Origin: Patescibacteria group bacterium
GTDB lineage: Bacteria; Patescibacteriota; Patescibacteriia; UBA9934
NCBI GenBank assembly: GCA_041661425.1
Contig: JBAZUI010000005.1
Location: 1-63,967 of the forward strand
Direction: 5' to 3'
Length of the DNA: 63,967 bases
Shown here: positions 4,519 to 63,598 of the stretch, in pieces
Numbering within the stretch: the first letter of the stretch is position 1
Layout: every line of letters starts with the position of its first letter
Made by a program: the position numbers and the translations under genes
Notes under the pieces: generated by a model
Told to the model about the DNA's origin: nothing
The model's input: only the letters and a program-made list of their open reading frames with translations
Databases searched by the model: none

Positions 4519-4783
4519 CGAAGGACTTTTGTATTTGAGTGCAGAATGAGAAGAGGCAGAGGCTTTTCGCGAGACGAATACAAAACAAGGAGAAGCTTTA
4601 GATTTAGATGCAGCACGAGGAAAAAACCGAGCAACGAGGAGACGTGTGCAGATTTATTTTCGAAGGACTTTTGTATTTGAGTGCAGAACAAGGAGAAAAC
4701 CGAGTAGCAAGGAGCCGTACATAGATGTACGGTGACGAAGCACGGAGGTTTTCGACAAAGTTATGCGCCAAATACAGAAGTCC
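4519..4783 (+). repeat. Nested/tandem array of family A repeats (two truncated units plus one full unit at 4665-4783)
   Basis: CGAAGGACTTTTGTATTTGAGTGCAGAA occurs at 4519 and 4661 (142-bp period). A left-arm-only copy sits at ~4606-4645. Confidence 0.85.
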
Positions 4784-4794
4784 TTAAATAAAAA

Positions 4795-5608: not shown

Positions 5609-5613
5609 AGAAT

Positions 5614-5633
5614 TGGTGGACTTGAGGGGATTC
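5614..5633 (-). repeat. Orphan copy of the tRNA-Ala 3' end (T-loop to CCA)
   Basis: TGGTGGACTTGAGGGGATTC is identical to 5991-6010. Confidence 0.95.
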
Positions 5634-5990
5634 AGCTTCAGCTCTCGGCTTGCCGTCGCAAGCCTCGGCCCTGCCTACCGGCAGGCAGACTAGCCACCCG
5701 CCTTCGCAAGGCTTCGGCGGGCAGGCCGCCTACAATGGCGGAGTTTATCCACCGAAGCTCCGATTTATCCGTCGTAGCTTTAGCGAAGACGGAAGGAGCG
5801 AAGGAGGAGCGTTCGAATCCCTTCGCAAGCCAAATGGTTGACTTGCGTCTAATTTAATCAATAAATTTCCACGTATTTTGCTTCAGATACAAGGCATGGG
5901 TGGCAGTCGAGGAAACGTACCCAAATGTACGTTGACGAAAACTGACGGGACCCATAACACAGTAGCTTAACAAAATTCGTGGAAATTTCT
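5634..5990 (-). mobile_element. Insert between tRNA-Ala and its displaced 3' end: family B element (5634-5847) plus a family-A-like hairpin (5863-5988)
   Basis: The family B sequence is shared with 63358-63550 and 40810-40930. It abuts the tRNA fragment through the ...CCGAGAGCTGAAGC end (minus strand). Confidence 0.7.
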
Positions 5991-7120: not shown

Positions 7121-7960
7121 TTATTTTGATGCTTTTTTTTGGGTTTTTTTCCACATCTCAATGCTTTCAGAAAATTCTTGAGCAATCTGTCGGATGGCTT
7201 CTTTTTTTGAAATGCGTTTCTTCTCGTAGAGCGTGAGCGTTGGCATAAAAATCGTTCGCCCGATTGCCATACCAGAGACCACGCCACTTTTTGCTGCGGT
7301 TTGGATCCAGGTGCGCACTTGTTTTTTTGATGCTCCACGACCAAGAACAATGAGTGGAATCTCGGTTGCTCGTGCGACTTGTTGCCATTCTTTTGTGGAA
7401 TTCAACCCTTCGACTTTCCAAAGATCAGGAAGAATTCCATCTTGTTGAAGATTCTTAATGGCGTCGATTAAGAGTTGATATTTCGGTTTCGATCCCTTTA
7501 CAAGAATTTCAATGAGAATTTTTATGTGCAAATCACGAGCGATCATTTGCAACTCTTTGAGGCGTTTATGGATGCGCGCGTGGGTTTCTTGCTTTTCCGG
7601 AGCGTAACGAATCAGGACCTTCGCATAGGTTGGCCGGAATCGTTTCAAATGGTCACTCAATGCATCAGAGTATTCAAACGCCAGCGACTCTCCACCGCTT
7701 TGTTCGGTTGTGAGCGCAAATGCTATTTTTTTTCTTCTGGCACTTTTTAGTATTTTTTTCCCAAATTCCTCATCGACAAGAATTGCGAATTCTTCTTTCT
7801 TTTTTGAGTTCCGATAGACTTCAATGAAGCCGGAAAAAATAATGCGCTTGAGGTGACGAATGCGTCGAGCCTCTCTGGATGCCACCGGGTAAGTTGTTCG
7901 CAATAGTTCTTCAGCGAATGAGGCTCGGTGATCAAAGGGGAGAAAAAAGAGATTTTTCAT
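7121..7960 (-). CDS. Aldolase-like protein (DUF2090 / IolC C-terminal-like, class I aldolase fold)
   Basis: Starts MKNLFFLPFDHRASF. ATG at 7960 overlaps the upstream stop (ATGA). The family call is from memory of the motif. Confidence 0.55.
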   Translation of the reverse strand: MKNLFFLPFDHRASFAEELLRTTYPVASREARRIRHLKRIIFSGFIEVYRNSKKKEEFAILVDEEFGKKILKSARRKKIAFALTTEQSGGESLAFEYSDALSDHLKRFRPTYAKVLIRYAPEKQETHARIHKRLKELQMIARDLHIKILIEILVKGSKPKYQLLIDAIKNLQQDGILPDLWKVEGLNSTKEWQQVARATEIPLIVLGRGASKKQVRTWIQTAAKSGVVSGMAIGRTIFMPTLTLYEKKRISKKEAIRQIAQEFSESIEMWKKTQKKASK

Positions 7961-8490
7961 AGAGATTTCAATTGCCGGCCATGATAAAGGAAAATGGGAA
8001 GAGCACCTTGTTCGGCAAAGGATGCTTCCGGTGTGATATTCGGGAGTGGCCAGGCTTCCACAAGTACCAGACAATCATCTTTGAGTCGCGGACCGATTTT
8101 TTTGATGATTTTTTTGTAGGAGTTTGGCATGAGAAAGAGCGTCACCACGTCGGCGCGGGAAGGATCAATGGAAAAAAGATTTCCAAAGCGAAGGGAGACT
8201 CCATGATATTTTTTTTGGTGCATGAGTATCCGAATCCAGCCGATGCAAAGAGGAATAAGAGAGATGTCGTACCCAATATATCTGAGTGTTGGCGCGGTTT
8301 CCTTGAGTCCGAATAAGAGCGAACCGTCCCCGCATCCCAAATCCATGACAATGCCTTGAGCAGGGAGGGGGATTTTTTTCAATTGGTTTCGTTCTCGTTT
8401 TCTTGTCGGGACCCATGGCGCGGCAGAGAGTCCGGCAATGGCCGCCGAAGCAATGAAACTCCAAACAAGAAGAAAAAGAATCCATTTCAT
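7957..8490 (-). CDS. Class I SAM-dependent methyltransferase with N-terminal membrane/signal segment
   Basis: VMDLGCGDGSLL motif I. Confidence 0.7.
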   Translation of the reverse strand: MKWILFLLVWSFIASAAIAGLSAAPWVPTRKRERNQLKKIPLPAQGIVMDLGCGDGSLLFGLKETAPTLRYIGYDISLIPLCIGWIRILMHQKKYHGVSLRFGNLFSIDPSRADVVTLFLMPNSYKKIIKKIGPRLKDDCLVLVEAWPLPNITPEASFAEQGALPIFLYHGRQLKSL

Positions 8491-9182
8491 AAAATGCGCA
8501 AGAGGTCATCCAGCTCTTTTTGTGTGAGAGGCCGCCAAGTCCCAACAGGAAGATTTCCAAGATGGAGCGTTGCGATTCGAATGCGTTGAAGGGCCGTGAC
8601 TCCGTATCCCAACTTTTCACACATGCGCCGAATTTGTCGATTGCGACCTTCGGTGAGAGTCATGAGAAAGGTATTTGAAGAAAGTTTTTTCGTCTTGCAG
8701 GGTTTTGTTTTCTTGCCAAGAATAACCACACCGCGTTCCAGGGTCTGAAGTGTTTCGGGAGTGAGCGGTTTATTGATGACGACGCGATATTCTTTTTCAT
8801 GTGATCCTCTGGCATGGGAGAGCGCTTCTGCGAGGGCACCGTCGTTTGTGAGAATCATGAGTCCCGAAGAGGCCACATCCAATCGCCCAATGGAAAACGT
8901 GCGCTCCGGGAGTTTGACGTAATCAAAAATCGTGCGGCGCGCATGTGGATCGGCCGTGGAAATCACGCCAACGGGTTTATGAAAAGCAACATAAATCCGC
9001 TTCGTTTCTGCGCGAAGTTTTTTTCCTTGGACCATCACCTGATCTCCCGGGAAAACCGCATCTCCGAGCTTTGCTTTCTTCCCATTGATCATCACGTCGC
9101 CTTCTTCGATGAGTGCATCGGCTTTTCGACGTGAACACGATCCGAATTGGGCGATATATTTATTGATGCGTGTTCCGTTCAT
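8487..9182 (-). CDS. rRNA pseudouridine synthase, RsuA/RluB/RluF family
   Basis: N-terminal S4 domain (RINKYIAQ..SRRKAD) and catalytic GRLDVASSGLMILTNDG. Confidence 0.85.
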   Translation of the reverse strand: MNGTRINKYIAQFGSCSRRKADALIEEGDVMINGKKAKLGDAVFPGDQVMVQGKKLRAETKRIYVAFHKPVGVISTADPHARRTIFDYVKLPERTFSIGRLDVASSGLMILTNDGALAEALSHARGSHEKEYRVVINKPLTPETLQTLERGVVILGKKTKPCKTKKLSSNTFLMTLTEGRNRQIRRMCEKLGYGVTALQRIRIATLHLGNLPVGTWRPLTQKELDDLLRIL

Positions 9183-20789: not shown

Positions 20790-21300
20790 CAAATTCTGAT
20801 CTAGTCATTGCTGCGCCTTACGACACCGCGACTGCAGGCGTCGGGCCATTGGGCCTTCTCGCAATGACGTGGGGGTATCGCGTCAAAACTCACCCTGCCG
20901 TCATTGCGAGCCCGCAGGGCGAAGCAATCCGTTCGAATAGATTGCTTCCCGCCTTCGCTCATTCCGTCTTCGCTAAAGCTACGACGGATAAATCGGAGCT
21001 TCGGACGGGCAGGCGTCGGCCATGAGGCCTTCTCGCAATGACGGCAGAAAGGAAGCTCCGAAGTTATCGTGTTGCTTATGTTGTCATTGCGGGGTGCGGA
21101 TGGGTCTATGCCATCCCTCTGCCATATCGCGAGGAACTTGTGAGAATTCTCGGTGGCGTAGCAACCCATCCCCCTGCCGTCATTGCGAGGAGTGGATGAA
21201 AAATTATTCGGTGACAGAGCGATCCGTGCCCCCTGCCGTCATTGCGAGGAACTGTCTTACATTTTTTGGTGACGAAGCAATCCAGTATTGCCAATGGGTG
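20790..21300. repeat. ~500-bp mosaic of hairpin-forming repeat modules upstream of the FG-GAP gene
   Basis: CGTCATTGCGAG occurs at 20899, 21178 and 21236, with its complement CTCGCAATGACG at 20858 and 21033. GCAGGCGTCGG..GGCCTTCTCGCAATGACG is repeated at 20835 and 21010. A family B/C hairpin module sits at 20964-20992. Confidence 0.8.
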
Positions 21301-21403
21301 TTCTACGTCCCAACGCCGATTCTTTGCTGTGTATAAAGCGAAAAATCTTTGGATTGTCGTGTTATACTTAATCCATCATTTGTCTTATTTGCATTGCAAA
21401 GAA

Positions 21404-22276
21404 ATGAGCAGACCAATTCCTAAATTTAATATCCAAAAAGCATCCATTGCCATGATGTTTGCTTTGTTGTGTTTTATCCCTTTTGCTTTTGCGGCAACAA
21501 CGCACAATCTGTCGCTTTTTGTTGAGTTTACCGGTGAGAGCACAAATAGTAATTATGCGGGGCGGACGGTCGCCCCTGCCGGCGATGTAAACGGTGATGG
21601 TTACAAAGATTTCCTTATTGGAGCGTATGGCAATAATGATGGTGGCGCCAATACAGGTGCGGTGTATCTCATTTACGGTTCAGCAACACCGTTTACCAGC
21701 AGAAACCTTACAAATGACATAAAATTTTGGGGAGAAGCTGTTGGAGATTTGGTCGGCGAAACCTCTATTGCTTCTGCCGGGGACGTGAATGGTGACGGAT
21801 ACGATGATATTCTTATTGGCGCCTATAGAAATGATGATGCCGGAGCAGATGCCGGTGCCGCATATTTGATTTACGGCCAGGCGGCTACGCTTACCAGTGC
21901 TTCGCTTTCAACAGCAATCGAATTTACCGGTGAAGTCGCCGGAGATAAAGCCGGTTATTTCGTTGCCTCAGCAGGGGATGTGAACTTCGATACGTATGAT
22001 GACTTTTTGGTCGGCGCCTATATGAATGACGATGGCCCCGGTGACAATGGCGGTGCCGCCTATCTCATTTACGGTCAGGCTGATCCACTTGTGAGTGCAT
22101 CACTCTCAACCGCCGTGGAGTTTACCGGTGAAGTTGCCGGAGATAACGCTGGTACTAGTGTTTCTTCAGCTGGGGATGTAAATAACGACACATATAGCGA
22201 TATTCTCGTTGGTGCACAATCGAATGACGATGGCCCTGGTGACGATGGCGGCGCGGCTTATCTTATCTATGGCTAG
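21404..22276 (+). CDS. FG-GAP repeat surface protein, N-terminal part (signal peptide plus 4 repeats), ending at an in-frame TAG
   Basis: MSRPIPKFNIQKASIAMMFALLCFIPFAFA signal. Repeats of the form AGDVNGDGYDD..GAAYLIYGQA. The TAG at 22274-22276 replaces the CAG (Q) of the repeat consensus. Confidence 0.8.
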   Translation: MSRPIPKFNIQKASIAMMFALLCFIPFAFAATTHNLSLFVEFTGESTNSNYAGRTVAPAGDVNGDGYKDFLIGAYGNNDGGANTGAVYLIYGSATPFTSRNLTNDIKFWGEAVGDLVGETSIASAGDVNGDGYDDILIGAYRNDDAGADAGAAYLIYGQAATLTSASLSTAIEFTGEVAGDKAGYFVASAGDVNFDTYDDFLVGAYMNDDGPGDNGGAAYLIYGQADPLVSASLSTAVEFTGEVAGDNAGTSVSSAGDVNNDTYSDILVGAQSNDDGPGDDGGAAYLIYG

Positions 22277-22312
22277 GCCGCGCCACTCGTTAGTGCCTCG
22301 CTCTCAACGGCT

Positions 22313-25300
22313 GTGGAATTTACCGGTGAAGTTGCCGGAAACCAGGCCGGGTATTCTGTTTCTTCAGCCGGGGATGTGAATAACGATACTTACGATGACT
22401 TTTTAGTCGGAGCTTTCTTGAATAGTGACGGCGCGAGCATGGCCGGCGCTGTTTATTTAATTTACGGTCAGGCCGCTCCGCTTGTCGCCGCTTCACTTTC
22501 AACTGCGGTGGAGTTTACCGGTGAAGGTGTAATGGACTTTGCAGGCACCAGTGTTTCTTCAGCTGGGGATGTGAATAACGACACATATGATGATTTTCTC
22601 GTTAATGCAGCTTTTAACGATGATGGCCCGGGTAATGATGGAGGAGCGGCTTATCTCATTTACGGTCAGGCCGCGCCACTCGTTAGTGCTTCTCTTTCGA
22701 CCGCAGTTGAGTTCATCGGTGAAGCCGCTATTGATTATGCGGGCTACACGGTTGCCTCGGCCGGGGATGTGAATAACGACACTTATGATGATTTCCTGGT
22801 CGGCGCCTTTATGCATCATGGATATGGTGCCGATTCCGGTTCGGCTTATTTTATTTATGGTCAAGCTAGCGCACTCACGAGCGCGTCACTTTCAACCGCG
22901 GTTAATTTTGGTGGGGAAGCTTATGAGAATACCGCTGTGGCGTCTGATGACTCCGCGGGGAGTGACATTGGCAATGCTGGAGATGTGAACGGCGATGGGT
23001 ATGATGATTTCCTTGTAGTGGCAAATGCGAATGATGACGGTGGCAGCTCATCAGGATCGGCGTATCTTGTGTATGGTCAAGCTTCGCTTCTTGCGGGAAC
23101 ATCATTGTCAAATGCGGTTGAATATATCGGTGAAACGGTGTCGGATATGGTTAATCTTGCGAAAACAGCCGGAGACGTGAATGGTGATGGGTATGATGAT
23201 TTTCTCATCACAGCTTCTTTTAACGATAGCGGTGCTTCAAACGCCGGCGCCGTGTATCTTATTTACGGTCAGGCCGCACCATTGGCTGGTGGATCGCTAT
23301 CAAGTGTGGCAGTGAAATATACTGGGGAAGGTATTAACTACAAAGCCGGTGTCGCTCTTGCATACGGAGATATCAATGGCGATGAATATAGCGATTTTCT
23401 TATTGATGCCGCTTCAAGTAGTGATGGAAAAACCGTTGTTTATCTTGTGTATGGTCAAGCCGCACCATTGGCTGGTGGATCGCTATCAACGGCTGTTGCA
23501 TTAACCGGTGCGCCAGCGGGTGGCTATAATACTCCAGTTTCGGTCGGCGATGTAAACGGAGATGGGTATGATGATATTTTAATCGGAAATTATACTTTAA
23601 ACATTGCCTATCTTCTCTACGGTCAGGCCGCATCATTTGTGAGCGGATCCTATCTCGCATCATCCGTTCAGTTCACACCTGAGGTGAGTGGCGATTTGGC
23701 AGGAATGGACGTTGCGTTGGCGGATATCAACGGCGATGGATATCGCGACATGATTATTTCCGCCACACAAAATGACGATGGCGCAGTGAATGCCGGTGCG
23801 ATTTATCTGATTTATGGACAAGCCGCCGCACTTACAAACGCCTCTCTTTCGACTGCAATAGAATTTATGGGCATAAATGCCACAGCGTCCGGAGCCTCAA
23901 TTGGACTCGCTGATCATTGTGATGTTAATAACGATGGATACGACGATCTTTTTATTGGATTTAAAGATGACAATACCACCTATTACACTCTTGGTCAGGC
24001 AGCTCCCCTTGTTGGTGGATCGCTTTCAACATTCAATACATTCACGGGTGAAGTTGTTGGCGATAGTGCCGGTGATTCTGTCTCTTGTGCCGGTGATGTG
24101 AACGGCGACAATTATAATGAAATAATCATCGGTGCAACAGGAAATGATGATGCTGGATCCGGTGCCGGTGCCGCCTATCTTGGCTATCTCTACGTTGACT
24201 CCGATCACGATGGCATGCCGGGAACAGCCGGCATTCTCGACGGCAATGATTTTGACGATAATGACCCGAGCGTTCAGGATAGTTGGATTTCGAATTTGAG
24301 CGTTGGTGGTTCCTCGGATGGGTGGGGTGGAGTACTCATTCAATTTACCCTCGACGATCCAGACGATGATGATACCGATCAGGCAAGAATTCAATATAGC
24401 CTTGATAACGGCGCAACATGGGCAGATCCAACACTCAGCACATCAGATGCCGATACTACCGCAACCTATGGCGATCCGGATATTAATAATTCCGTTGCGT
24501 ATCAGGTTGGACAATCCGGTGCCTACATTACAACGTCTTCCGGAGCAAATACGATTCAGGTTCGATGGAATTCCGCGGTTGATGTTCCAACAGCGGCAAC
24601 ACAAACCGCAAAAATTCGCGTGACCCCTTATGACGGGACTTCAGAAGGAACCTCAGCAACAAGCTCAGCGTTTTCACTCAATAACCTCGAATCAAATCCC
24701 AGCGATTCCACTCCATCACAACCAAAGGTCACGCCGGAACTGACGGGCCTCGTCATCTCTCAAGGCAATGGCACTACGACCGGTACTCTCACCGAAGGGG
24801 AGTGGACAAGTGTTTCTTGGCTCACACTCGGCTCCGTTCCGTATGTGCTTGTTTCTTATTCAACAGATAATGGATCCACCTGGCAGACGCTTGTTGGTCC
24901 CATCGCAAATCGCAGTAATATCGCCTTTACCATGCCAAGTGATCTGGGTGACACCTTCATGCTCAAGGTTGAAGGAACTGATCTTGCTCTTGTTCTCGAT
25001 ACGCTCACGAGTGATCCAATTATCATCCTCGAACAGACAACCACCCCACCAACATCAACGACTCCGGTCGTAACTCCACCAGCCACGTACGTCCCAGTGG
25101 TTCCGGTTTATGCTCCCTCTCCCATTCTTGGTTACCAGTTCCCAACAACTCCAACGGATACAACATCGGCTACTCAAACTCCCGCAGAAACAGGCGATGA
25201 ACCATCTCCCATCCTTACCTATACCTCTCCCGAGGCCGCATCTCCCGTCACAGGTGAACAGGAAGAGGTGACTGAAGTCTTCCCTGGAGACTATATCAAG

Positions 25301-25684
25301 AGTCCATATTTCCCAACGGTCTATTATGTCACGGAAAACATGGAGCGCCGTCCATTCATGGACGCTCAAACCTACTTTACCTATGAGAGTTCGTTTAATG
25401 CCGTAAAGATCGTTTCTGATGCCACGCTTCCTCTCCTCAATCTTGCCGGTCCCATGCTTCCAAAGCCTTCGACCGTTCTTGTGAAAATCCAGAGTGATCC
25501 AAAGGTCTATCTCGTCTCCACAAATCCCGACAGTGAATATCGCCCCATTCTTCATTGGATCTCGAGCGAGGAATTGGCCGTCAAGATGTACGGCCCTCAA
25601 TGGCCACAATACGTGATTGATATTCCTGTTACTCTATTCGCACGATTTGAGATTGGAGACAAGATTGCCCTGAATCCGAATTGA
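22313..25684 (+). CDS. FG-GAP repeat surface protein, continuation (same frame as 21404-22276; 10 more repeats, T/P-rich linker, C-terminal conserved domain)
   Basis: Frame is continuous from 22277 (AAPLVSASLSTAVEFTGE...). Track ORF start 22313 is a GTG inside the repeat. Confidence 0.85.
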   Translation: MEFTGEVAGNQAGYSVSSAGDVNNDTYDDFLVGAFLNSDGASMAGAVYLIYGQAAPLVAASLSTAVEFTGEGVMDFAGTSVSSAGDVNNDTYDDFLVNAAFNDDGPGNDGGAAYLIYGQAAPLVSASLSTAVEFIGEAAIDYAGYTVASAGDVNNDTYDDFLVGAFMHHGYGADSGSAYFIYGQASALTSASLSTAVNFGGEAYENTAVASDDSAGSDIGNAGDVNGDGYDDFLVVANANDDGGSSSGSAYLVYGQASLLAGTSLSNAVEYIGETVSDMVNLAKTAGDVNGDGYDDFLITASFNDSGASNAGAVYLIYGQAAPLAGGSLSSVAVKYTGEGINYKAGVALAYGDINGDEYSDFLIDAASSSDGKTVVYLVYGQAAPLAGGSLSTAVALTGAPAGGYNTPVSVGDVNGDGYDDILIGNYTLNIAYLLYGQAASFVSGSYLASSVQFTPEVSGDLAGMDVALADINGDGYRDMIISATQNDDGAVNAGAIYLIYGQAAALTNASLSTAIEFMGINATASGASIGLADHCDVNNDGYDDLFIGFKDDNTTYYTLGQAAPLVGGSLSTFNTFTGEVVGDSAGDSVSCAGDVNGDNYNEIIIGATGNDDAGSGAGAAYLGYLYVDSDHDGMPGTAGILDGNDFDDNDPSVQDSWISNLSVGGSSDGWGGVLIQFTLDDPDDDDTDQARIQYSLDNGATWADPTLSTSDADTTATYGDPDINNSVAYQVGQSGAYITTSSGANTIQVRWNSAVDVPTAATQTAKIRVTPYDGTSEGTSATSSAFSLNNLESNPSDSTPSQPKVTPELTGLVISQGNGTTTGTLTEGEWTSVSWLTLGSVPYVLVSYSTDNGSTWQTLVGPIANRSNIAFTMPSDLGDTFMLKVEGTDLALVLDTLTSDPIIILEQTTTPPTSTTPVVTPPATYVPVVPVYAPSPILGYQFPTTPTDTTSATQTPAETGDEPSPILTYTSPEAASPVTGEQEEVTEVFPGDYIKSPYFPTVYYVTENMERRPFMDAQTYFTYESSFNAVKIVSDATLPLLNLAGPMLPKPSTVLVKIQSDPKVYLVSTNPDSEYRPILHWISSEELAVKMYGPQWPQYVIDIPVTLFARFEIGDKIALNPN

Positions 25685-35134: not shown

Positions 35135-35645
35135 GTATTCAGGAAATGCGTAAGCCGAATTCTGTTCCAAATGCCGAAGCATTGGGGCGGTCATCTCTCT
35201 AGGGCGTCTCTTGCGAGACGTCTCATGCGAGCTACCTAATTTGCTCTTGCACCAAGGCAGGTTTGCCACCGCTCCATGTCGCCATGGAGGGAGACTGGTG
35301 GCTCCCGTCAGGGAACCTCCAATCACTTTTCACCTTTTGTTCTACGCAGTGGAACAATCCTGAGTACCGAGCTTGTCGAGGTATCGAAGGGTCACGTTGC
35401 ACCTCTCGACTCGCTTTGCTCGCTCGGGATCGTTTTACTGCGTAAAACTAGTATTGTCTCTGTGGCGCTATCTCTGGGTTTCGGGAAGGGACCGAGGAAC
35501 GGATAAATCCAGTTCCTTGAACTCTTCCTATGTCCCGGTTGCCGTTAGCAACGCCTTTTGATTTTCGATCTTGCGATCGAAAAGGTGTTCGGACTTTCCT
35601 CTTGGGATCCGAAGATTCCAAGTAACCACCACCATTTCCTGAATG
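35135..35645 (-). ncRNA. rnpB: RNase P RNA, bacterial type A, unusually long (~510 nt)
   Basis: On the minus strand: GAGGAAAGTCCGAACAC (P4 5'), GGTGCAAGAGCAAATTAGG, CTAGAGAGATGACCGCCC, and ACAGAATTCGGCTTAC (P4 3'). P1 pairs ATTCAGGAAATG with CATTTCCTGAAT. Confidence 0.9.
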
Positions 35646-35650
35646 CCGAA

Positions 35651-35679
35651 ATAATAGCAGAAAACAGCTGAATTGTCAA
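35651..35679 (-). promoter_or_regulatory. Sigma70-type promoter for rnpB
   Basis: Minus strand reads TTGACA-17 nt-TATTAT. The predicted start falls ~7 nt downstream, at the P1 5' end. Confidence 0.65.
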
Positions 35680-35680
35680 T

Positions 35681-36083
35681 AAAAAAATGCTCCAGGGCAA
35701 GGGGCCTTGGAGCAGACGAAAAGAGAAGAATGCGGTGCGTAGAACAAGAAAAAGATAGTGTAGAGGGTTTCGTGGTTTGGCATCCGCCACATGTCCGATA
35801 AGCCGGAGTGACTTCTCAACAGCTTATCCCAAAGCGGATTGGCCTCGGTGGTGGGTTCTCACGCTCTTCGCTATTGGACCTCTAACGAAGCATCCCACTT
35901 CTCACATCCCCCTCACCCTGAATGTGAGCTTGGTGCGTGAGTTTACCCCATGATCAAGAGGCTACCTGCAAAAGTAACACGTTCTTGATCACACAAGACA
36001 GGCGTAGAACTCGCCCCTGACATATTCGACCTCGCCACGACCACAGCTACGTCTTTTGTTCCTCTTCTCCTACGCACCGCAGT
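35681..36083 (-). ncRNA. Unassigned structured RNA candidate Y (~400 nt) with its own promoter and terminator
   Basis: A 12-bp closing helix TGCGGTGCGTAG / CTACGCACCGCA encloses ~330 nt of hairpin-rich, ORF-poor sequence. Terminator hairpin GCTCCAAGGCC..GGCCCTGGAGC plus T7 at 35681-35713. Confidence 0.5.
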
Positions 36084-36089
36084 GTGGTG

Positions 36090-36118
36090 AAAGTACAGGA
36101 AAATCCAACAAAAGTCAA
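36090..36118 (-). promoter_or_regulatory. Sigma70-type promoter for RNA candidate Y
   Basis: Minus strand reads TTGACT-17 nt-TACTTT, immediately after the preceding terminator. Confidence 0.55.
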
Positions 36119-36411
36119 TAAAAATAGAACCCCACTGGAGGAGGTTCCGGTGGGGAGAATAAAATTGTGCGGTGTCGTTTTTTGCCGGGTGAGTTTGGGG
36201 GGCGTTCCCGAGAGAGGGCGGATTGAAAGGCTAGATTCACTCATGAATCAGCCGATGCCTCAAGCTTTTTTCTGTGCTCAAACCCGTGAGGGGAGCAACA
36301 GATATTGTGCTTGAACTTCGTCTTTTAGACGAAGGCCTGTCGGCATTTATTTTTCAACTTCTCAATCCCGGGTGACGGGGAAGGGCCCAGTGCGAAAAGA
36401 CGTCACCGCGC
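36119..36411 (-). ncRNA. Unassigned structured RNA candidate X (~290 nt) with its own promoter and terminator
   Basis: ORF-poor. Nested helices include GGTGACG..CGTCACC, GCCGACAGG..GCATCGGC and CTTCGTCT-AAA-AGACGAAG. Terminator CCCCACCGG..CCAGTGGGG plus T-rich run at 36119-36155. Confidence 0.45.
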
Positions 36412-36417
36412 GAAAAA

Positions 36418-36446
36418 AGAGTATCCCTTTTTTATAAATTTGTCAA
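36418..36446 (-). promoter_or_regulatory. Sigma70-type promoter for RNA candidate X
   Basis: Minus strand reads TTGACA-17 nt-TACTCT. Confidence 0.5.
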
Positions 36447-36456
36447 GAGTTAGCCT

Positions 36457-36488
36457 AAAAAACGAAAAGCCACGGGTTTAGCCGTGGG
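36457..36488 (-). terminator. Terminator after the GC-rich small gene
   Basis: Minus strand reads CCACGG-CTAAAC-CCGTGG followed by CTTTTCGTTTTTT. Confidence 0.65.
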
Positions 36489-36523
36489 AGGAGGCGGTTA
36501 GGCTCGAGCGGAGGATTGTCCGT

Positions 36524-40457: not shown

Positions 40458-40577
40458 AAGAATAACATTGGTTCCCGGTTCAATGGCCGGGAAGAATTAA
40501 GAGAAAATTATTTGTCTGTCTTCGACGTGTTCGGAGAAAGACAAATGAGTTTCTCGATGAATTGATTTTTTATTCCT

Positions 40578-40788
40578 GGTGCCGGGCAGGATGGCTGTAT
40601 CATTCTTCGTTCCGACTGACGAGGTAGGCTTGAATGGCCTGTTCGCGTCCTCCTACGCTCCTCAGCATTACCTCGGAGCTTCGGAGGACAGCCGTAGCTT
40701 CAGCCGACAAGCAGGGTGGCTTGCCAGCCGTTTTATCCACCGTAACTCTAGTGAAGGTGGAAGCTTCAGCGATAGCTGAAGCGAAGGC
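40578..40788 (-). repeat. Family C tRNA-trailer element (copy 3), following the displaced tRNA-Leu 3' fragment
   Basis: Minus strand begins GCCTTCGCTTCAGCTATCGCTGAAGCTTCCACCTTCACTAGAGTTACGGTGGATAAAACGG..., near-identical to 51257-51470. Confidence 0.85.
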
Positions 40789-40809
40789 TGGTGGGCGGAG
40801 AGGGACTCG
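40789..40809 (-). repeat. Orphan copy of the tRNA-Leu(CAG) 3' end (T-loop to CCA)
   Basis: TGGTGGGCGGAGAGGGACTCG is identical to 40936-40956. Confidence 0.95.
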
Positions 40810-40935
40810 GCCTCGACTCTCGGCTTGCCGTCGCAAGCCTCGGTCTGGCCACCGCCTCGCCATTCTGCCTGCTGGCAGAATATGGCTCCGGCGTTCGAGT
40901 CCATTAACAAGCCAAATGGTTGGCTTGTCGACCCT
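40810..40935 (-). mobile_element. Short family B element inserted between tRNA-Leu(CAG) and its displaced 3' end
   Basis: Shares CTCGGCTTGCCGTCGCAAGCCTCGG and GTTCGAGTCC..ACAAGCCAAATGGTTGGCTTGT with the B copies at 5634 and 63358. Confidence 0.7.
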
Positions 40936-41021
40936 TGGTGGGCGGAGAGGGACTCGAACCCTCAAGAGATTACTCTCACAAGCTTCTGAAACTTGCGTGT
41001 CTACCGTTTCACCATCCGCCC
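40936..41021 (-). tRNA. tRNA-Leu (anticodon CAG), long variable arm, CCA encoded
   Basis: Manual fold: acceptor GGGCGGA.., anticodon arm CAAGT-TTCAGAA-GCTTG, T-arm GAGGG-TTCGAGT-CCCTC. Confidence 0.9.
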
Positions 41022-50125: not shown

Positions 50126-50202
50126 GGGTCTGTAGCTCAGTTGGTTAGAGCGCCGAGCTTATACCTCGGTGGTCGATGGTTCGAGTCCATCCAGACCCAC
50201 CA
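50126..50202 (+). tRNA. tRNA-Ile (anticodon TAT), CCA encoded
   Basis: Manual fold: acceptor GGGTCTG/CAGACCC, anticodon arm CCGAG-CTTATAC-CTCGG, T-arm GATGG-TTCGAGT-CCATC. The body resembles bacterial tRNA-Ile. Confidence 0.85.
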
Positions 50203-50365
50203 GCCTTCGCTTCAGCTATCGCTGAAGCTACGGCTGGCAGGCCATCCTGCCTTCCACCTTCACTAAAGTTACGGTGGATAAAACGGCTGGCAGGCCACCC
50301 TGTCAGCTGAAGCGAAGGCTGTCCTCCGAAGCTCCGAGGCAATGCCGAGGAGCGTAGGAGGACAT
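50203..50365 (+). repeat. Family C tRNA-trailer element (copy 1), starting at the nucleotide after CCA
   Basis: GCCTTCGCTTCAGCTATCGCTGAAGC...CCACCTTCACTAAAGTTACGGTGGATAAAACGG...GCTGAAGCGAAGGCTGTCCTCCGAAGCTCCGAGGC...GGAGGAC. Confidence 0.85.
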
Positions 50366-51046: not shown

Positions 51047-51170
51047 GAGAACTTTTCCTTTTGGATGCAGAACAAGGAAGAACCAAGGCTTTTTGTGAGA
51101 CGTACCCAAATGTACGTTGAACAAAAAACGAAGGTTCTGACGAAGCTATGCGCCAAAAGGAGAAGTTCTC
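51047..51170 (+). repeat. Family A structured repeat (variant core), between the membrane-protein gene and tRNA-Val
   Basis: Outer arms GAGAACTTTTCCTTTTGG / CCAAAAGGAGAAGTTCTC. Core GATGCAGAACAAGG...ACGTACCCAAATGTACGT...GACGAAGCTATGCGCC. Confidence 0.8.
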
Positions 51171-51179
51171 TGTAAGTGA

Positions 51180-51256
51180 GGGCGTGTAGCTCAGCTGGTT
51201 AGAGCGTCACATTGACATTGTGAAGGTCAGAGGTTCGAGTCCTCTCACGCCCACCA
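51180..51256 (+). tRNA. tRNA-Val (anticodon GAC), CCA encoded
   Basis: Manual fold: acceptor GGGCGTG/CACGCCC, anticodon arm TCACA-TTGACAT-TGTGA. Confidence 0.93.
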
Positions 51257-51490
51257 GCCTTCGCTTCAGCTATCGCTGAAGCTTCCACCTTCACTAGAGT
51301 TACGGTGGATAAAACGGCTGGCAAGCCATCCTGCTTGTCGGCTGAAGCGAAGGCTGTCCTCCGAAGCTCCGAGGCAACGCCGAGGAGCGTAGGAGGACGC
51401 GAATAGGCCATCAAGTCTGCCATCTCGTCAGTCGGAACGAAGGATGCCCTCCGAAGCCCCGTTTACAGCGGGGCGAAGGAGGGCAGGATT
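51257..51490 (+). repeat. Family C tRNA-trailer element (copy 2), starting at the nucleotide after CCA
   Basis: Same sequence family as 50203-50365 and 40578-40788, with an extended 3' part (CTCGTCAGTCGGAACGAAGGATG...). Confidence 0.85.
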
Positions 51491-51526
51491 TCATGAAAAC
51501 TTTCTGTTAACGAAGACTATTCGGAT

Positions 51527-51769
51527 ATGTTTTTTGTGTATATTATTCAAAGCATGATTGACCGAGATCAATTTTATACTGGTTTTACTGATGACATTGA
51601 AAATCGAATAACGAAACATAATAAAGGTGACTCGTTTCATACAAAAAAATACAGGCCATGGAAATTACTTTTCTATAGTGCTTTTGAAGAAAAGAAAAAG
51701 GCTCTTTGTTTCGAAAAGTATCTAAAAACAGGATCAGGTATAGCTTATAAGAGAAAACATTTCATCTAG
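51527..51769 (+). CDS. Stand-alone GIY-YIG nuclease-domain protein
   Basis: FVYIIQS..QFYTGFT (GIY..YIG), R..KHN, and an 80-aa size typical of the UPF0213-type. Confidence 0.75.
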   Translation: MFFVYIIQSMIDRDQFYTGFTDDIENRITKHNKGDSFHTKKYRPWKLLFYSAFEEKKKALCFEKYLKTGSGIAYKRKHFI

Positions 51770-51801
51770 AATTTGCGAAGACTTTTTTATAATTACAAAC
51801 C

Positions 51802-51830
51802 TTGACTTTTTCCAAAAAATTTGCTAATTT
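51802..51830 (+). promoter_or_regulatory. Sigma70-type promoter in front of the GC-rich three-gene cassette
   Basis: TTGACT-17 nt-TAATTT. GGGAGG Shine-Dalgarno lies before ATG 51890. Confidence 0.55.
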
Positions 51831-51889
51831 TTGAGTGCTTCTGAAGCGAAGAATAGTGTCTAAATTTTCATTCCACCGGGAGGTGAGAG

Positions 51890-52093
51890 ATGCGGTTTCG
51901 GTACCCGGAGATCGAGGTTCGTTTCGAGCGAAGGCTCACGGAGCTCATTTTCGATGGGCACTGCTATGGCGATGCTCATGACCTTGCGAAGGAGGAGTTC
52001 GCGCGGGCCGAGGCCGAGTACGAGCGTCGGCGGGCCGAGGAGAAGATCGTGGCGGAATCCGCCGCGATTGTGCTCGTGCCCGCGGAGGCCTGA
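51890..52093 (+). CDS. Hypothetical 67-aa protein (GC-rich cassette, gene 1)
   Basis: Shine-Dalgarno GGGAGGTG plus ATG; G/C-rich third codon positions. Confidence 0.55.
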   Translation: MRFRYPEIEVRFERRLTELIFDGHCYGDAHDLAKEEFARAEAEYERRRAEEKIVAESAAIVLVPAEA

Positions 52094-52094
52094 G

Positions 52095-52331
52095 ATGACC
52101 CGCCGCGATCGTGCGCGGGCGATCCTACTGGATGTCCTGCTCGAGACCTCGGGTCTTCTCTCGAGACTCGAGTGCCCCATGAACGCCGCGGAGTTTGCAA
52201 TCGTGCAGCGCCTTCGGGACTTCCGCGTCCATGGTGTCTGGGTTGCGATCTGCGACAAGACGCTCATGGCCGTGGCCGAGATCTGGTTCGGGACCGAGTG
52301 CCGATCCGTGATCGTCGAGATCGGCCTCTAG
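52095..52331 (+). CDS. Hypothetical 78-aa protein (GC-rich cassette, gene 2)
   Basis: ATG lies 1 nt after the gene-1 stop (TGAGATG), suggesting tight coupling. Confidence 0.5.
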   Translation: MTRRDRARAILLDVLLETSGLLSRLECPMNAAEFAIVQRLRDFRVHGVWVAICDKTLMAVAEIWFGTECRSVIVEIGL

Positions 52332-52410
52332 TGTTCTTCGTCCGCGTCGCCATCTGGCTGACGCGGGTCGTGCTGAGTGCAGAAAGAAAATTATGCATTG
52401 AGTACGACAG

Positions 52411-52620
52411 ATGGAGGAAATCGTGAATCGAATTTATCGGGAAGTTGTGGCGGTGTTTTATGCCGAATGTCTCGGACGTCACCTGCAGGCCGGATATTCG
52501 TGCGATCGTGCGGAGTCGATTGCAGAAAACGAAGCGAAGTACCTCTCCAGAGCTATCCTCGATGGCTTGATCATCATTCATATTTCCGTGGCGAGGAATC
52601 TCGAATGTCCTTATCACTAA
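52411..52620 (+). CDS. Hypothetical 69-aa protein (GC-rich cassette, gene 3; weakly resembles gene 1)
   Basis: The ORF is followed by hairpin GCCTCG..CGAGGC plus a T-run. An alternative GTG start at 52423 follows GGAGGA. Confidence 0.5.
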   Translation: MEEIVNRIYREVVAVFYAECLGRHLQAGYSCDRAESIAENEAKYLSRAILDGLIIIHISVARNLECPYH

Positions 52621-52659
52621 AACAAGGCCTCGTCGACGTATCGGCGAGGCTCCTGTGTT

Positions 52660-54141
52660 TTATTTTTCACTTTGATATTTTTTTGCCATCTCCTCGGCTT
52701 GTGGTGGTGTTTGGATTTTTCCAGCAAGTTGCGCATCCCGAATGGCATCGAGGACTTCGCGGTAGAGTGGGCCCGGGGGAATTCCCATTTCCTTCAGATG
52801 GGAGCCAGAAAGAAGTCGTGGCAGACGATCCTTTGAACCTTGAAGCTCGGCCATGCCGATCATGGCTTCGCGAATGCGTTTGGCAATGAGCAATCGTTCA
52901 CGCGCAACTCCATGTTGATCGCGAGCAATGTGGGTGGCGTGCATGAGCATTAAAAGATTCCGTCCGCGATCGGAAAGGAACATGGATTCGAATTTTGATG
53001 GTCGCATGGTTGCAGGATCGATCATTTGAAAATCATGAAGATGCTCCAGGAGCCAGAATAATTCCTCGCAAGAAATATTGGCATGATGATGGCGAGAAAA
53101 TTGATGAAAATAATAATCCTCGCAAATACGAATGGCCGTTGTGGAAACGGAATCCTCCAAGAAAGAGAAAAGCCCGGCTAAAAGAAGGGTTGGGGATGCG
53201 TGTTTCACTCCATAGGAAGCAAGAAAAGTCGGCTTTTCGAGTGTCTGGAGCGTTTGAAATGTTTTTTGGAGAATGGATTCGCGATCATCTTCGAGCATGT
53301 TCTCAAGTGCCGCGAGTTCGGGCATGAACAAGTGGAGCGCTCGGCTTTCAAGCCAAAGACGAATCGTGTGCACGGGATGCGCCACAAATCCAAGCAAAAA
53401 TTCCCGACCGATCATTTCGCGCGGAATCACGTAGATGTGTTTTCCGTGTTCATTGAGTGTGGTGTTCTGCAAGAGATTGAGGTTCGCTTTGAGTGCGCGC
53501 CACGTGAGTTCCTCAATGCCAAAATTCAATTGACTGGCAAGACGAAGCGCCCGAAGCATGCGCGTGGCATCTTCGGCAAAACGTTGTTCCGGAAGAAGCA
53601 CCGCACTGAGCGTTGCGGCAGACAGATCTTGCAAGCCAAGAAAAGGATCAATAAGTCGATGTTCGCGTAATTCATACGCCATGGCGTTCACGGTGAAATC
53701 GCGTCGTGATAAATCTTCTTTAATGGGGAGATCGGCATCAAAACGAACATCCAAGCTTTTTCTTCCAGCAGTGTGAAAGGTGGGGTCAAAGAGATGTTCT
53801 TTTCGCGGAAGGGCGATATCAATGGGCAGACGACTCGTACATCCGTGAGGAACAAATTTGAATGTCCCAAAGCGCCCAACGAATTCCGCAGCGCCATGTT
53901 GCAAAAGCCAACGCTCAAGAATGGGCGGTTCGACATGACGAATCACTAAATCAATATCTTGCGGCAATCGACCGAGCAAAACATCTCGAAGCGTACCGCC
54001 GACCAGAAAAATTTCCGCCTGCGGAAAATGAGAATAAAAAAGCGCGGTCCACGTGAGCCGTGGCTCGCTCTCGAGATAAAGAGAGATCCGCTCCTCCGGA
54101 GGGATGCTCTGCGACGCATAATGCACGAGCATGGTTTCCAT
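52660..54141 (-). CDS. cca: CCA-adding enzyme / poly(A) polymerase-family tRNA nucleotidyltransferase
   Basis: LVGGTLRDVLLGR..DIDLV and RRDFTVNAM motifs. Confidence 0.85.
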   Translation of the reverse strand: METMLVHYASQSIPPEERISLYLESEPRLTWTALFYSHFPQAEIFLVGGTLRDVLLGRLPQDIDLVIRHVEPPILERWLLQHGAAEFVGRFGTFKFVPHGCTSRLPIDIALPRKEHLFDPTFHTAGRKSLDVRFDADLPIKEDLSRRDFTVNAMAYELREHRLIDPFLGLQDLSAATLSAVLLPEQRFAEDATRMLRALRLASQLNFGIEELTWRALKANLNLLQNTTLNEHGKHIYVIPREMIGREFLLGFVAHPVHTIRLWLESRALHLFMPELAALENMLEDDRESILQKTFQTLQTLEKPTFLASYGVKHASPTLLLAGLFSFLEDSVSTTAIRICEDYYFHQFSRHHHANISCEELFWLLEHLHDFQMIDPATMRPSKFESMFLSDRGRNLLMLMHATHIARDQHGVARERLLIAKRIREAMIGMAELQGSKDRLPRLLSGSHLKEMGIPPGPLYREVLDAIRDAQLAGKIQTPPQAEEMAKKYQSEK

Positions 54142-63166: not shown

Positions 63167-63336
63167 CCGCCTGCACAAGGGCGGAGTTTATCCACCGAAG
63201 CTCCGATTTATCCGTCGTAGCTTTAGTGAAGACGGAAGGAGCGAAGGAGGAGCGTTCGAATCCCACGCAAGCCAAATTGTTGGCTTGCTATGAAATACCA
63301 ACCCACAAGGTTCCAATGATTTGAAACATTCTGGGT
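63167..63336 (-). mobile_element. Older, 5'-truncated tandem copy of the family B element plus spacer
   Basis: Near-identical to 63429-63598 (262-bp period). Confidence 0.75.
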
Positions 63337-63357
63337 TGGTGGACGCCAAGGGATTCG
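63337..63357 (-). repeat. Orphan copy of the tRNA-Val(TAC) 3' end (T-loop to CCA)
   Basis: TGGTGGACGCCAAGGGATTCG is identical to 63599-63619. Confidence 0.95.
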
Positions 63358-63598
63358 GCTTCAGCTCTCGGCTTGCCGTCGCAAGCCTCGGCTTAGCCAC
63401 CCGCCTTCGCAAGGCTTCGGCGGGCAGGCCGCCTGCACAAGGGCGGAGTTTATCCACCGAAGCTCCGATTTATCCGTCGTAGCTTTAGCGAAGACGGAAG
63501 GAGCGAAGGAGGAGCGTTCGAATCCCACGCAAGCCAAATTGTTGGCTTGCTATGAAATACCAACCCACAAAGTTCCAATGATTTGAAACATTCTGGGT
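63358..63598 (-). mobile_element. Family B element (63358-63550) plus spacer, inserted between tRNA-Val(TAC) and its displaced 3' end
   Basis: Shares almost its whole length with 5634-5847. Confidence 0.75.

Follow-up and report, generated by a model that had tools for sequence, protein, structure and literature searches.

The window, which is the whole 63,967-nucleotide (nt) stretch of contig JBAZUI010000005.1 from a Patescibacteria group bacterium (assembly GCA_041661425.1), encodes six transfer RNAs (tRNAs) as detected by ARAGORN, and three of them carry behind their 3′ ends a copy of a structured noncoding repeat that was listed as family C in the initial annotation and is called R below. 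tRNA-Ile(TAT) (50126–50202, + strand) and tRNA-Val(GAC) (51180–51256, +) have an encoded CCA and are followed by R at 50203–50363 (+) and 51257–51493 (+), respectively. The third copy lies behind tRNA-Leu(CAG) (40936–41021, − strand), which is complete with its own CCA; here a 127-nt insert of another repeat, family B (40809–40935, −), separates the tRNA from a displaced 20-nt duplicate of its 3′ end that runs from T-loop GAGT to CCA (GAGTCCCTCTCCGCCCACCA; 40789–40808, −), and R starts after this duplicate (40572–40788, −; core from 40788 down to 40647, then an extension, with the right end accurate to about ±5 nt). The Val copy is the full form, its noncoding part being followed by an open reading frame (ORF) for a predicted GIY-YIG nuclease of 80 amino acids and UPF0213/SLX1 type (51527–51769, +; Pfam PF01541, E = 6e-16); the Ile and Leu copies consist of R only. 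The host is a groundwater member of the candidate phyla radiation (CPR), with metagenome-assembled genomes (MAGs) named "Patescibacteria group bacterium" and Uhrbacteria-like sequences as its closest relatives.

The boundaries given in the initial annotation agree with our analysis. The first bases of the element, GCCTTCGCTTCAGC, occur exactly at 50203, 51257, and 40788 (−), in each case at the base after CCA (of tRNA-Ile, of tRNA-Val, and of the displaced tRNA-Leu end) and on the tRNA strand, and the end placed near 51490 fits the final hairpin of the Val copy, which stops at 51485. With up to two mismatches, GCCTTCGCTTCAGC has seven matches against 0.64 expected, a number reached in 0 of 100 shuffles; its reverse complement (50306 and 51341) lies 85–100 nt downstream in each copy. 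The three copies are 94–96% identical from the base after CCA through ...GGAGGAC (about 143–162 nt aligned), with a 23-nt indel in the Ile copy and about 45 nt beyond the core that are common to the Val and Leu copies. Reads from the source metagenome cover the element at a depth of 27–87 and its flanks at 9–15, which corresponds to only about three to six copies in the community; most or even all of these probably lie in the window.

Insertion Polymorphism in Related Genomes

Two syntenic relatives were found through the neighboring RluD gene, by collecting its protein homologues and then the contigs that encode them; a search of genome contigs for related loci with this neighbor had returned only a 35% match from Desulfobacteraceae. 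The closest relative (L150, JBAYHI010000004.1) has amino acid identities of 64% for RluD and 82% for UvrA, and the next (L152) has 56% for RluD. In the closest relative, the CCA of tRNA-Val(GAC) is followed by unrelated sequence with neither R nor the GIY-YIG ORF, and that of tRNA-Leu(CAG) directly joins the homologous flank, which in the window resumes about 365 nt past CCA. Its tRNA-Ile(TAT) has a diverged homologous R trailer in which the outer helix is changed on both sides (GCCTTCGC/GCGAAGGC to CCCTTCGC/GCGAAGGG), and its tRNA-Ala(TGC) has a plain R directly behind the CCA, a site at which the window has family B and no R. R occupancy thus differs at four tRNAs between the two genomes; the second relative has no element at tRNA-Ile or tRNA-Val.

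From this comparison of sequences, the R copies are insertions relative to a close relative. Orthologous DNA of the window and the closest relative is 67–75% identical and the window copies are about 95% identical to one another, which points to recent spread or homogenization within the genome; no target-site duplication is present at the Val or Ile copies. The initial annotation had offered two readings, a conserved, co-transcribed 3′ trailer (a processing signal, a decoy, or a released small RNA) and an insertion element targeting the 3′ end of tRNAs. A co-transcribed trailer with such a role is plausible, but the expected conservation fails, R being present at one of three orthologous tRNAs in the closest relative and at none of two in the next; since it is not conserved there, tRNA maturation does not strictly require it. 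The second reading is well supported by empty orthologous sites, by the shifts in occupancy, and by the linkage to a nuclease gene and the more than 30 tRNA species and a tmRNA, in many phyla, described below.

The interval between tRNA-Val(GAC) and the gene for the CCA-adding enzyme (PolyA_pol) is a variable spot with small ORFs in both genomes and syntenic flanks; window positions 51770–52725 and positions 7215–9014 of the closest relative have no detectable homology.

A Linked Gene for a Small GIY-YIG Protein

The initial annotation recognized the element itself and missed the adjoining GIY-YIG ORF, the modular inverted-repeat makeup, and the very wide distribution. Among the matches listed in a metagenome scan (described below), a GIY-YIG ORF of about 80 amino acids and UPF0213/SLX1 type follows 17 of the 91 trailers that have at least 600 nt of downstream sequence, in all 17 cases on the tRNA strand and 100–450 nt past CCA. 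The reverse test, starting from protein homologues of the ORF, gave the arrangement of tRNA or transfer-messenger RNA (tmRNA), CCA, R, and ORF at six of the six loci fetched; these have tRNA-Ile, tRNA-Leu, or tmRNA and come from CPR, from an alphaproteobacterium, and from a Desulfobacteraceae MAG. At the last (L278, 1016–1375), the CCA of the tmRNA is followed by R and then by the ORF, so that the targets of the cassette include tmRNA. Three of 13 parsed cassettes have R on both sides of the ORF (R-ORF-R; L255, L174, and L272). In the window, the sequence GCTTCTGAAGCGAAGAATAG at 51836–51853, 70 nt past the stop codon of the ORF, has the 11-mer CTGAAGCGAAG in common with the beta strand of family C (see below) and may be a decayed right-hand R of this kind.

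Among ORFs within 2.5 kb of 117 module-bearing loci, the GIY-YIG gene is the only recurrent neighbor, apart from leuS as a target; no transposase, reverse transcriptase, or integrase is recurrent or linked within that distance. A larger coding mobile element around the modules was therefore rejected as an explanation. The protein has 78–84 amino acids and consists of the catalytic domain alone; Y5, Y17, G19, R27, H31, E63, and the motif YLKTGSG are invariant in 16 homologues. A profile search of the PDB placed UPF0213 (1zg2 and 1ywl) and SLX1 nearest, and not I-TevI/Seg; NCBIfam and PHROG returned no family match for the protein. With the catalytic residues intact, nuclease activity is predicted.

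Distribution across tRNA Genes and Phyla

An exact 26-mer of the element start had no match in genome and metagenome contigs, the family being too diverged for exact long words. Metagenomes were scanned with a pattern anchored on tRNAs by design (T-arm + N11 + CCA + SCCTTCGCT), which found at least 120 loci behind at least 32 tRNA isoacceptor types. Some trailers hold tandem R arrays in which one unit ends in ...GCCA and the next starts with GCCTTCGC. A strict composite R (helices P1 and gamma, described below) was also searched for in about 1 Mb of loci picked without regard to tRNAs; its single occurrence there lies directly after the CCA of a tRNA-Met. In all sets taken together, the composite R is preceded by ...CCA save in one case, which is the second R of an R-ORF-R unit. 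Duplicates of the tRNA 3′ end (19–25 nt) accompany 3 of 122 metagenomic trailers; the elements at L242 and L248 are flanked by T-loop-to-CCA duplicates of 19–23 nt, like family B. A literature search, with incomplete coverage that leaves room for an earlier account elsewhere, found no description of the element; a "Bacteroidete tRNA motif" of the Weinberg 2017 motif set is an unconfirmed lead. The cassette is apparently undescribed and has a fair chance of being a distinct class.

Architecture and Folding of the R Element

A single word, CCNCC-TTCGC / GCGAA-GGNGG, recurs in inverted copies and makes up the whole of R: the gamma hairpin is the reverse complement of the type found in the alpha clamp and in the module H2. 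In the alpha clamp, CCA is followed by SCC-TTC-(variable hairpin)-TWC-GGS(N)TGG-CAAGCC, and the 5′ arm is formed by the tRNA's CCA plus three bases; in the Val copy, CCA+GCC (51254–51259, +) can pair in this way with GGCTGG (51316–51321), and the clamp of the Ile copy (+) is complete (CCAGCC...GCTGAAGC-TAC-GGCTGG-CAGGCC). In helix P1, the beta strand ..GCGAAGGS-TG pairs with CA+SCCTTCGC..; the 5′ strand of the Val copy, CA+GCCTTCGCTTCAGC (51255–51270, +), forms a perfect helix of 16 base pairs (bp) with the beta strand GCTGAAGCGAAGGCTG (51341–51356, +), whose terminal TG pairs with the final CA of tRNA-Val(GAC). The alpha clamp and P1 are mutually exclusive, and both take in the tRNA's own CCA. 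Mutually exclusive folds had been recognized in the initial annotation, but the distal helix was given there as 14 bp, without the CA of CCA.

Gamma comes directly after P1. Its 7-bp outer stem encloses two G(A/U/G)A strands, one on each side of an inner hairpin whose sequence is free, and these strands form a conserved, symmetric 3 × 3 purine internal loop (GAA/GAA). In the Val copy it has the form GTCCTCC-GAA-GCTCC..GGAGC-GTA-GGAGGAC (51356–51398, +), so that the previously noted GTCCTCC..GGAGGAC hairpin is present in the fold; a second hairpin of this type, TGCCCTCC-GAA-GCCCCG..CGGGGC-GAA-GGAGGGCA (51445–51485, +), belongs to the Val copy only. The R copies of the window also hold a nested hairpin of about 30 nt, H2 (CCACC-TTCACTAGAGTTAC-GGTGG-ATAAA), which in the Val copy reads TTCCACC-TTCACTAGAGTTAC-GGTGG-ATAAAA (51283–51314, +) and follows an inner hairpin GCTTCAGC-TATC-GCTGAAGC (51263–51282, +). 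The order in the Val copy is accordingly the P1 5′ strand, the inner hairpin, H2, GGCTGG-CAAGCC, beta, gamma, an extension, and the second gamma-type hairpin (gamma′). The modules of the Ile copy (+) lie at 50252–50283 (H2), 50306–50319 plus TG (beta), and 50321–50363 (gamma); the beta strand of the Leu copy is GCTGAAGCTACGGC and carries a TTC/TAC mismatch. Metagenomic trailers keep the order alpha, beta, gamma.

The element folds far better than shuffled sequences on both strands (z = −7.8 sense, −5.3 antisense). The absence of both a T-run and a coherent ORF from the element, noted from the letters alone, was upheld by scans for terminators, promoters, and ORFs: there is no terminator-like T-run or other terminator-like site in any of the three copies, no promoter-like site, and no coherent ORF. 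An intrinsic (Rho-independent) terminator or a promoter was accordingly discarded as an explanation. An Rfam search, which the initial annotation had proposed, assigned the element to no family, with nothing significant on the element region at E ≤ 10; at the gathering score the window has tRNA, rRNA, and RNase P matches only, and 15 metagenomic trailers match no family at the gathering threshold. Weak rows for Acido-1, MIR, and Plastid-ycf2 were dismissed as tRNA-derived or noise.

Covariation supports both CCA-including helices and the GAA/GAA hairpin. In metagenomic trailers whose first base after CCA is G, the clamp partner is C in 78 of 81 and the beta partner is C in 60 of 67; with C at this position, the partners are G in 7 of 10 (clamp) and 7 of 8 (beta). 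Variants with T, found at loci retrieved through protein homologues, have compensated clamps (CCATCC/GGATGG and CCATTC/GAATGG). For gamma, excerpts of 41 distinct hairpins were aligned, each comprising the arms, the loops, and the four pairs that close the inner stem; these are related sequences that had been preselected for at least 8 of 11 Watson–Crick pairs. Within this set, 85.6% of cells are paired versus 74.2% in shuffles, double-sided changes number 53 versus 18.9, and the covariation score is 0.323 versus 0.124 (0.03–0.10 in slid controls); none of these three values was reached in 500 shuffles.

H2, Family B, and Other Repeats

The general form of H2 is YCCNCC-TTCGCTAAAGCTAC-GGNGG-ATAAA, with a constant loop, two pyrimidine mismatches, and covarying arms. 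The H2 pattern alone occurs in more than 117 species-representative genomes from many phyla, mostly MAGs (loci L030–L146), and had no match in viral contigs. Most copies lie away from tRNAs, sometimes in nested arrays (L035), and some are in frame within genes, where they read SSFAKAT(E/K)DK, as in the leucyl-tRNA synthetase (LeuRS) of L141. At L066, H2 has at its flank a diverged copy, 28 nt long, of the beginning of a gene for an aminoacyl-tRNA synthetase, leuS-like as judged by eye from its N-terminus. At L083 and L113, it stands right after the discriminator base with no CCA, its 5′ arm being the last 5 nt of the CCA-less tRNA. H2 modules of the window lie at 20969–20992, 5764–5787, 63207–63230, and 63469–63492 and in each family C copy.

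Family B is found at 5613–5990 (−), 63167–63598 (−), and 40789–40935 (−), behind tRNA-Ala(TGC), tRNA-Val(TAC), and tRNA-Leu(CAG). It starts with the hairpin CAAGCCAACCATTTGGCTTG plus GGGATTCGAACGC, contains nested H2- and gamma-type modules, ends in CCGAGGCTTGCGACGGCAAGCCGAGAG-CTGAAGC, and is fused to a 20–21-nt duplicate of the host tRNA 3′ end (T-loop GAAT/GAGT to CCA). Behind tRNA-Val(TAC), the duplicate forms part of a 262-nt unit that is present in 1.8 head-to-tail copies of 99% identity. A tRNA-like minihelix made of family B and the displaced 3′ end was considered and set aside; no complementary 5′ acceptor strand was seen by eye.

Two further repeats were noted. One, CCCTGCCGTCATTGCGAGG....GAAGCAATCC, has at least four copies at 20800–21270, in an intergenic region of about 700 nt that also holds H2. 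The other, AGGACTTTTGTATTTGAGTGCAGAACAAGGA ... GAGCCGTACAyAGAyGTACGGTGACGA, lies at 472–595, 4519–4787, 5912–5941, and 51048–51126 of the window, at 5660–5785 and about 8930–8960 of L150, and at about 4700–4790 of L279, its sites being the 23S–5S spacer, the region upstream of tRNA-Val(GAC), the region downstream of tRNA-Ala, and tRNA flanks of the relatives; it is about 71% conserved between genomes and may serve stable-RNA operons in processing or regulation. The class A RNase P RNA (35135–35642, −) has a match of 508 nt to a model of 367 positions, and hence about 140 nt of insertions; the sequence upstream of it (35643–36520) is noncoding and looks structured. A long ORF pair at 21242–25684 contains about 13 tandem repeats of about 198 nt (66 amino acids) with a DxDxDG-like motif (GDVNGDGYDDFLIG), and looks like the FG-GAP/VCBS type of large surface protein.

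A Probable Selfish Cassette at tRNA 3′ Ends

R is inserted exactly after CCA on the tRNA strand, is widespread, is linked to a nuclease gene, and has an architecture that pairs with the tRNA's CCA. On balance we favor the view that family C comprises a selfish insertion cassette of tRNA 3′ ends together with its ORF-less derivatives. The specific route by which a nuclease might spread it is put forward with much less confidence. R and the ORF would be transcribed by read-through from the tRNA promoter, as the lack of a promoter and terminator in R suggests; co-transcription is plausible in that neither a terminator nor a promoter was found between tRNA and element and that the helices pairing with CCA covary. 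RNA runs that match the window share 3% of words with it, presumably from the tRNA alone. Ordinary tRNA 3′ maturation at CCA would then yield an intact tRNA and an R-led nuclease mRNA, so that the insertion would leave the host unharmed and gain its expression at no cost. The nuclease is related to structure-specific endonucleases and may nick hairpin or cloverleaf DNA at the 3′ ends of tRNA genes; repair copying from an occupied site would carry R, alone or together with the ORF, to other tRNA genes that end in ...CCA. R–R recombination, as R-ORF-R forms exist, or incomplete copying could give rise to solo R.

Several points weigh against a selfish cassette. Its copies in the community are few (about three to six), most copies have neither a target-site duplication nor a sharply defined right end, and the ORF is present behind only about 19% of trailers. 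The large scan set was anchored on tRNAs from the outset, and the states of the base after CCA may go back to a small number of subfamilies and not to many independent changes. In the helices, G-T mismatches are as frequent as A-C mismatches, so that neither the selected strand nor RNA as opposed to DNA can be named, and pairing with the tRNA's CCA that is kept by covariation suggests a role at the RNA level, which is compatible with selfishness and does not require it. We know of no UPF0213/SLX1-type GIY-YIG protein that acts as a homing endonuclease or transposase, and the 80-amino-acid protein has no obvious DNA-binding domain with which it might read a tRNA gene. Positional conservation of the Ile copy in the closest relative fits vertical inheritance of a functional trailer as well. 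Finally, the mechanistic parts of the proposal (mobility, transcript, and nuclease activity) are all things that we infer from sequence.

One alternative is that R is primarily a functional RNA, at once a cis-acting tRNA 3′ trailer and a 5′ leader of the GIY-YIG mRNA, whose CCA helices govern 3′ processing, protect the CCA, or switch translation of the ORF, and whose patchiness reflects gain and loss of an accessory host module. Both alternative CCA-including helices are kept by compensatory changes, the invariant purine loop and covarying stems of gamma are typical of a protein- or RNA-binding motif, no terminator separates tRNA from element, and the fold of the sense strand is the more stable one (−124 vs −115 kcal/mol for the antisense strand); a preprint on Sinorhizobium meliloti (gene SM2011_RS15670), an unverified lead as regards tRNA context, describes a long leader of a GIY-YIG gene that represses translation. 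We nevertheless judge such an RNA to be unlikely as the whole account: a close relative lacks R at orthologous tRNAs and carries it at different ones, R has no fixed partner among more than 30 tRNAs and tmRNA, some 80% of its copies stand without an ORF that could be regulated, the tandem and nested arrays resemble proliferation, and G-U pairs are not in excess over A-C on the sense strand. Such a role is, moreover, compatible with mobility and may describe how a mobile element stays harmless. A less probable alternative, which we hold in low regard, is a miniature single-stranded DNA transposon of the IS200/IS605 or REP/RAYT (repetitive extragenic palindrome and its associated tyrosine transposase) kind that inserts 3′ of the short target NCCA without duplication, is moved in trans by an HUH (Y1) transposase encoded at another place, and carries the GIY-YIG gene as a passenger. 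Guide–target pairing at the insertion site is known from IS608, and R resembles this in that an internal TG(G) beside a hairpin pairs with the target CCA; every insertion lies immediately 3′ of one short sequence and has one orientation, mostly with no duplicated target, imperfect hairpins form the ends, and R units end in ...GCCA and are thereby themselves targets, which would account for tandem arrays. However, no transposase family recurs within 2.5 kb of the 117 loci, R has no REP head of the GTAG/CGTC type, and a linkage of GIY-YIG to R at six of six loci is too tight for a passenger.

Very improbable, in our estimate, is an origin of the junction at the RNA level, in which a reverse transcriptase working on R RNA takes the CCA end of a mature tRNA or tmRNA as its next template or as its primer, and the hybrid complementary DNA (cDNA) recombines with the gene, as described for the Mauriceville retroplasmid of Neurospora. 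The junction lies exactly at the mature 3′ end of tRNAs and tmRNA, and the T-loop-to-CCA duplicates of 19–23 nt (family B, L242, and L248) are of the size class of tRNA primer-binding sites and are the expected product of a single crossover of circular cDNA, which the 262-nt head-to-tail unit behind tRNA-Val(TAC) also fits. However, no reverse transcriptase is linked to any locus, CCA is genome-encoded at empty sites and hence not diagnostic, H2 stands directly after the discriminator base, with no CCA, at the CCA-less tRNA genes of L083 and L113, and a flanking duplication accompanies only 3 of 122 copies. We would be just as surprised if no dedicated machinery were at work and R had spread by illegitimate recombination or gene conversion among flanks reading ...CCCACCA, with convergent trailers elsewhere. 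The genome has only three copies, the three target tRNAs end in CCCACCA and the three window tRNAs without family C end differently, and the additional 45 nt or so of the Val and Leu copies appear nonmodular, their first 15 nt matching the flank of the relative's Ile trailer as if co-copied. Yet SCCTTCGC, GCTWCGGSTGG-CAAGCC, GCGAAGGS-TG, and CC-GWA-GC..GC-GAA-GG recur in the same order and with the ORF across phyla, which convergence cannot explain; this account is largely refuted and survives only as a local copying route inside the genome.

Within the favored view of a selfish cassette, a further step is tentative and on the doubtful side: tRNA/tmRNA-CCA, R, and a mini-GIY-YIG gene might together make up a new class of autonomous mobile element, with an SLX1-like, structure-specific nuclease steered to tRNA gene 3′ ends by nucleic acid structure instead of a DNA-binding domain. 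Steering might come from a cloverleaf or hairpin extruded from the DNA, or from pairing of the R transcript with ...CCA; to be expressed, the element would need the tRNA promoter together with the processing of tRNA 3′ ends. In a bolder form of this idea, R would harbor a new motif for self-cleavage or processing, with its cut exactly after CCA. If correct, this would explain the common MAG genes for "GIY-YIG nuclease family protein" beside tRNAs, as well as hairpin-rich tRNA trailers, by one class of element across Patescibacteria, Proteobacteria, Desulfobacterota, and many soil lineages. A selfish element would have solved the problem of harmless insertion by landing at the mature 3′ end of a tRNA or tmRNA and borrowing promoter and processing, a bacterial parallel to the eukaryotic retroelements that target tRNA genes, and the 80-amino-acid protein would be a testable minimal nuclease with specificity from nucleic acid structure or an adjacent RNA. 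For annotation, R and its relative H2 of about 30 nt can be a source of spurious ORFs (SSFAKATEDK-like peptides) and of assembly breaks at tRNAs, and can sit in frame within essential genes; repeats of this CPR genome accumulate mainly in tRNA 3′ flanks.

Comparison with Known Systems

R has the terminal inverted repeats of miniature inverted-repeat transposable elements (MITEs), 16 bp and perfect at 51255–51270 and 51341–51356; a target-site duplication of fixed length on every copy is absent, as is a cognate autonomous element with a known transposase, the GIY-YIG gene being the sole linked ORF. Reviews of REPs and MITEs are among the nearest published material (PMC3733652; PMC3184786). Like the palindrome-associated transposable elements (PATEs) of IS200/IS605 and the REP sequences and bacterial interspersed mosaic elements (BIMEs) with RAYT, R is a short noncoding hairpin repeat that is inserted in one orientation, without target duplication, immediately 3′ of a constant short motif (...CCA, read along the tRNA strand), has internal bases that pair with the target, and forms tandem or nested clusters. 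In contrast to them, it targets the CCA of tRNA and tmRNA, its ORF encodes a GIY-YIG and not an HUH/Y1 protein, and it has no GTAG/CGTC head; its words are conserved across phyla, whereas REPs are species-specific.

SegB of phage T4 is encoded by a free-standing GIY-YIG homing endonuclease gene in a tRNA gene cluster (PMC2330249). Common to both systems are a small GIY-YIG gene among or behind tRNA genes, which is thought to promote its own inheritance, and a GIY-YIG domain with intact catalytic residues. SegB, however, belongs to the I-TevI/Seg clade, has a DNA-binding domain, and needs homologous phage flanks; the protein described here is a bare 80-amino-acid one of UPF0213/SLX1 type that has neither the C-terminal DNA-binding domain nor a place in the homing clade, and its gene always stands behind a conserved structured element, at many tRNAs and in cellular genomes. 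Integrase-borne islands and prophages likewise target the 3′ end of tRNA and tmRNA genes, leave the gene intact, and occasionally produce a T-loop-to-CCA duplicate. Unlike them, R has no integrase in or beside any copy, measures 0.15–0.5 kb, and joins exactly after CCA; an att-like duplicate is usually absent (it is seen only with family B and in 3 of 122 trailers), and the duplicated segment, when present, is specific to each host tRNA.

In Neurospora mitochondria, GC-rich palindromes flank tRNA genes, and fungal mitochondria more generally have mobile GC clusters and double-hairpin elements; these palindromes have been proposed as processing signals or as selfish DNA and insert in frame into genes. 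R resembles them in its conserved modules beside tRNAs, and in-frame insertion is also seen with H2; the sequences are different, the setting is bacterial rather than organellar, and a nuclease gene is linked. In the Mauriceville/Varkud retroplasmid of Neurospora, foreign sequence is joined after the CCA of a tRNA and the tRNA segment may be duplicated; R differs in being bacterial, in having no reverse transcriptase, and in following a genome-encoded CCA. HEARO/IscB–omega RNA and TnpB–reRNA (right-end RNA), finally, pair a small nuclease gene with a conserved structured noncoding element at the end of a mobile unit, as does the cassette. Unlike IscB and TnpB, the GIY-YIG protein is far smaller, has another fold, and has no known RNA-binding part, and R lies upstream of the ORF and abuts the tRNA; a guide role for R would be speculative. 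If a structure-steered nuclease is indeed at work, the situation would be like that before the guide RNAs of IscB and TnpB were discovered.

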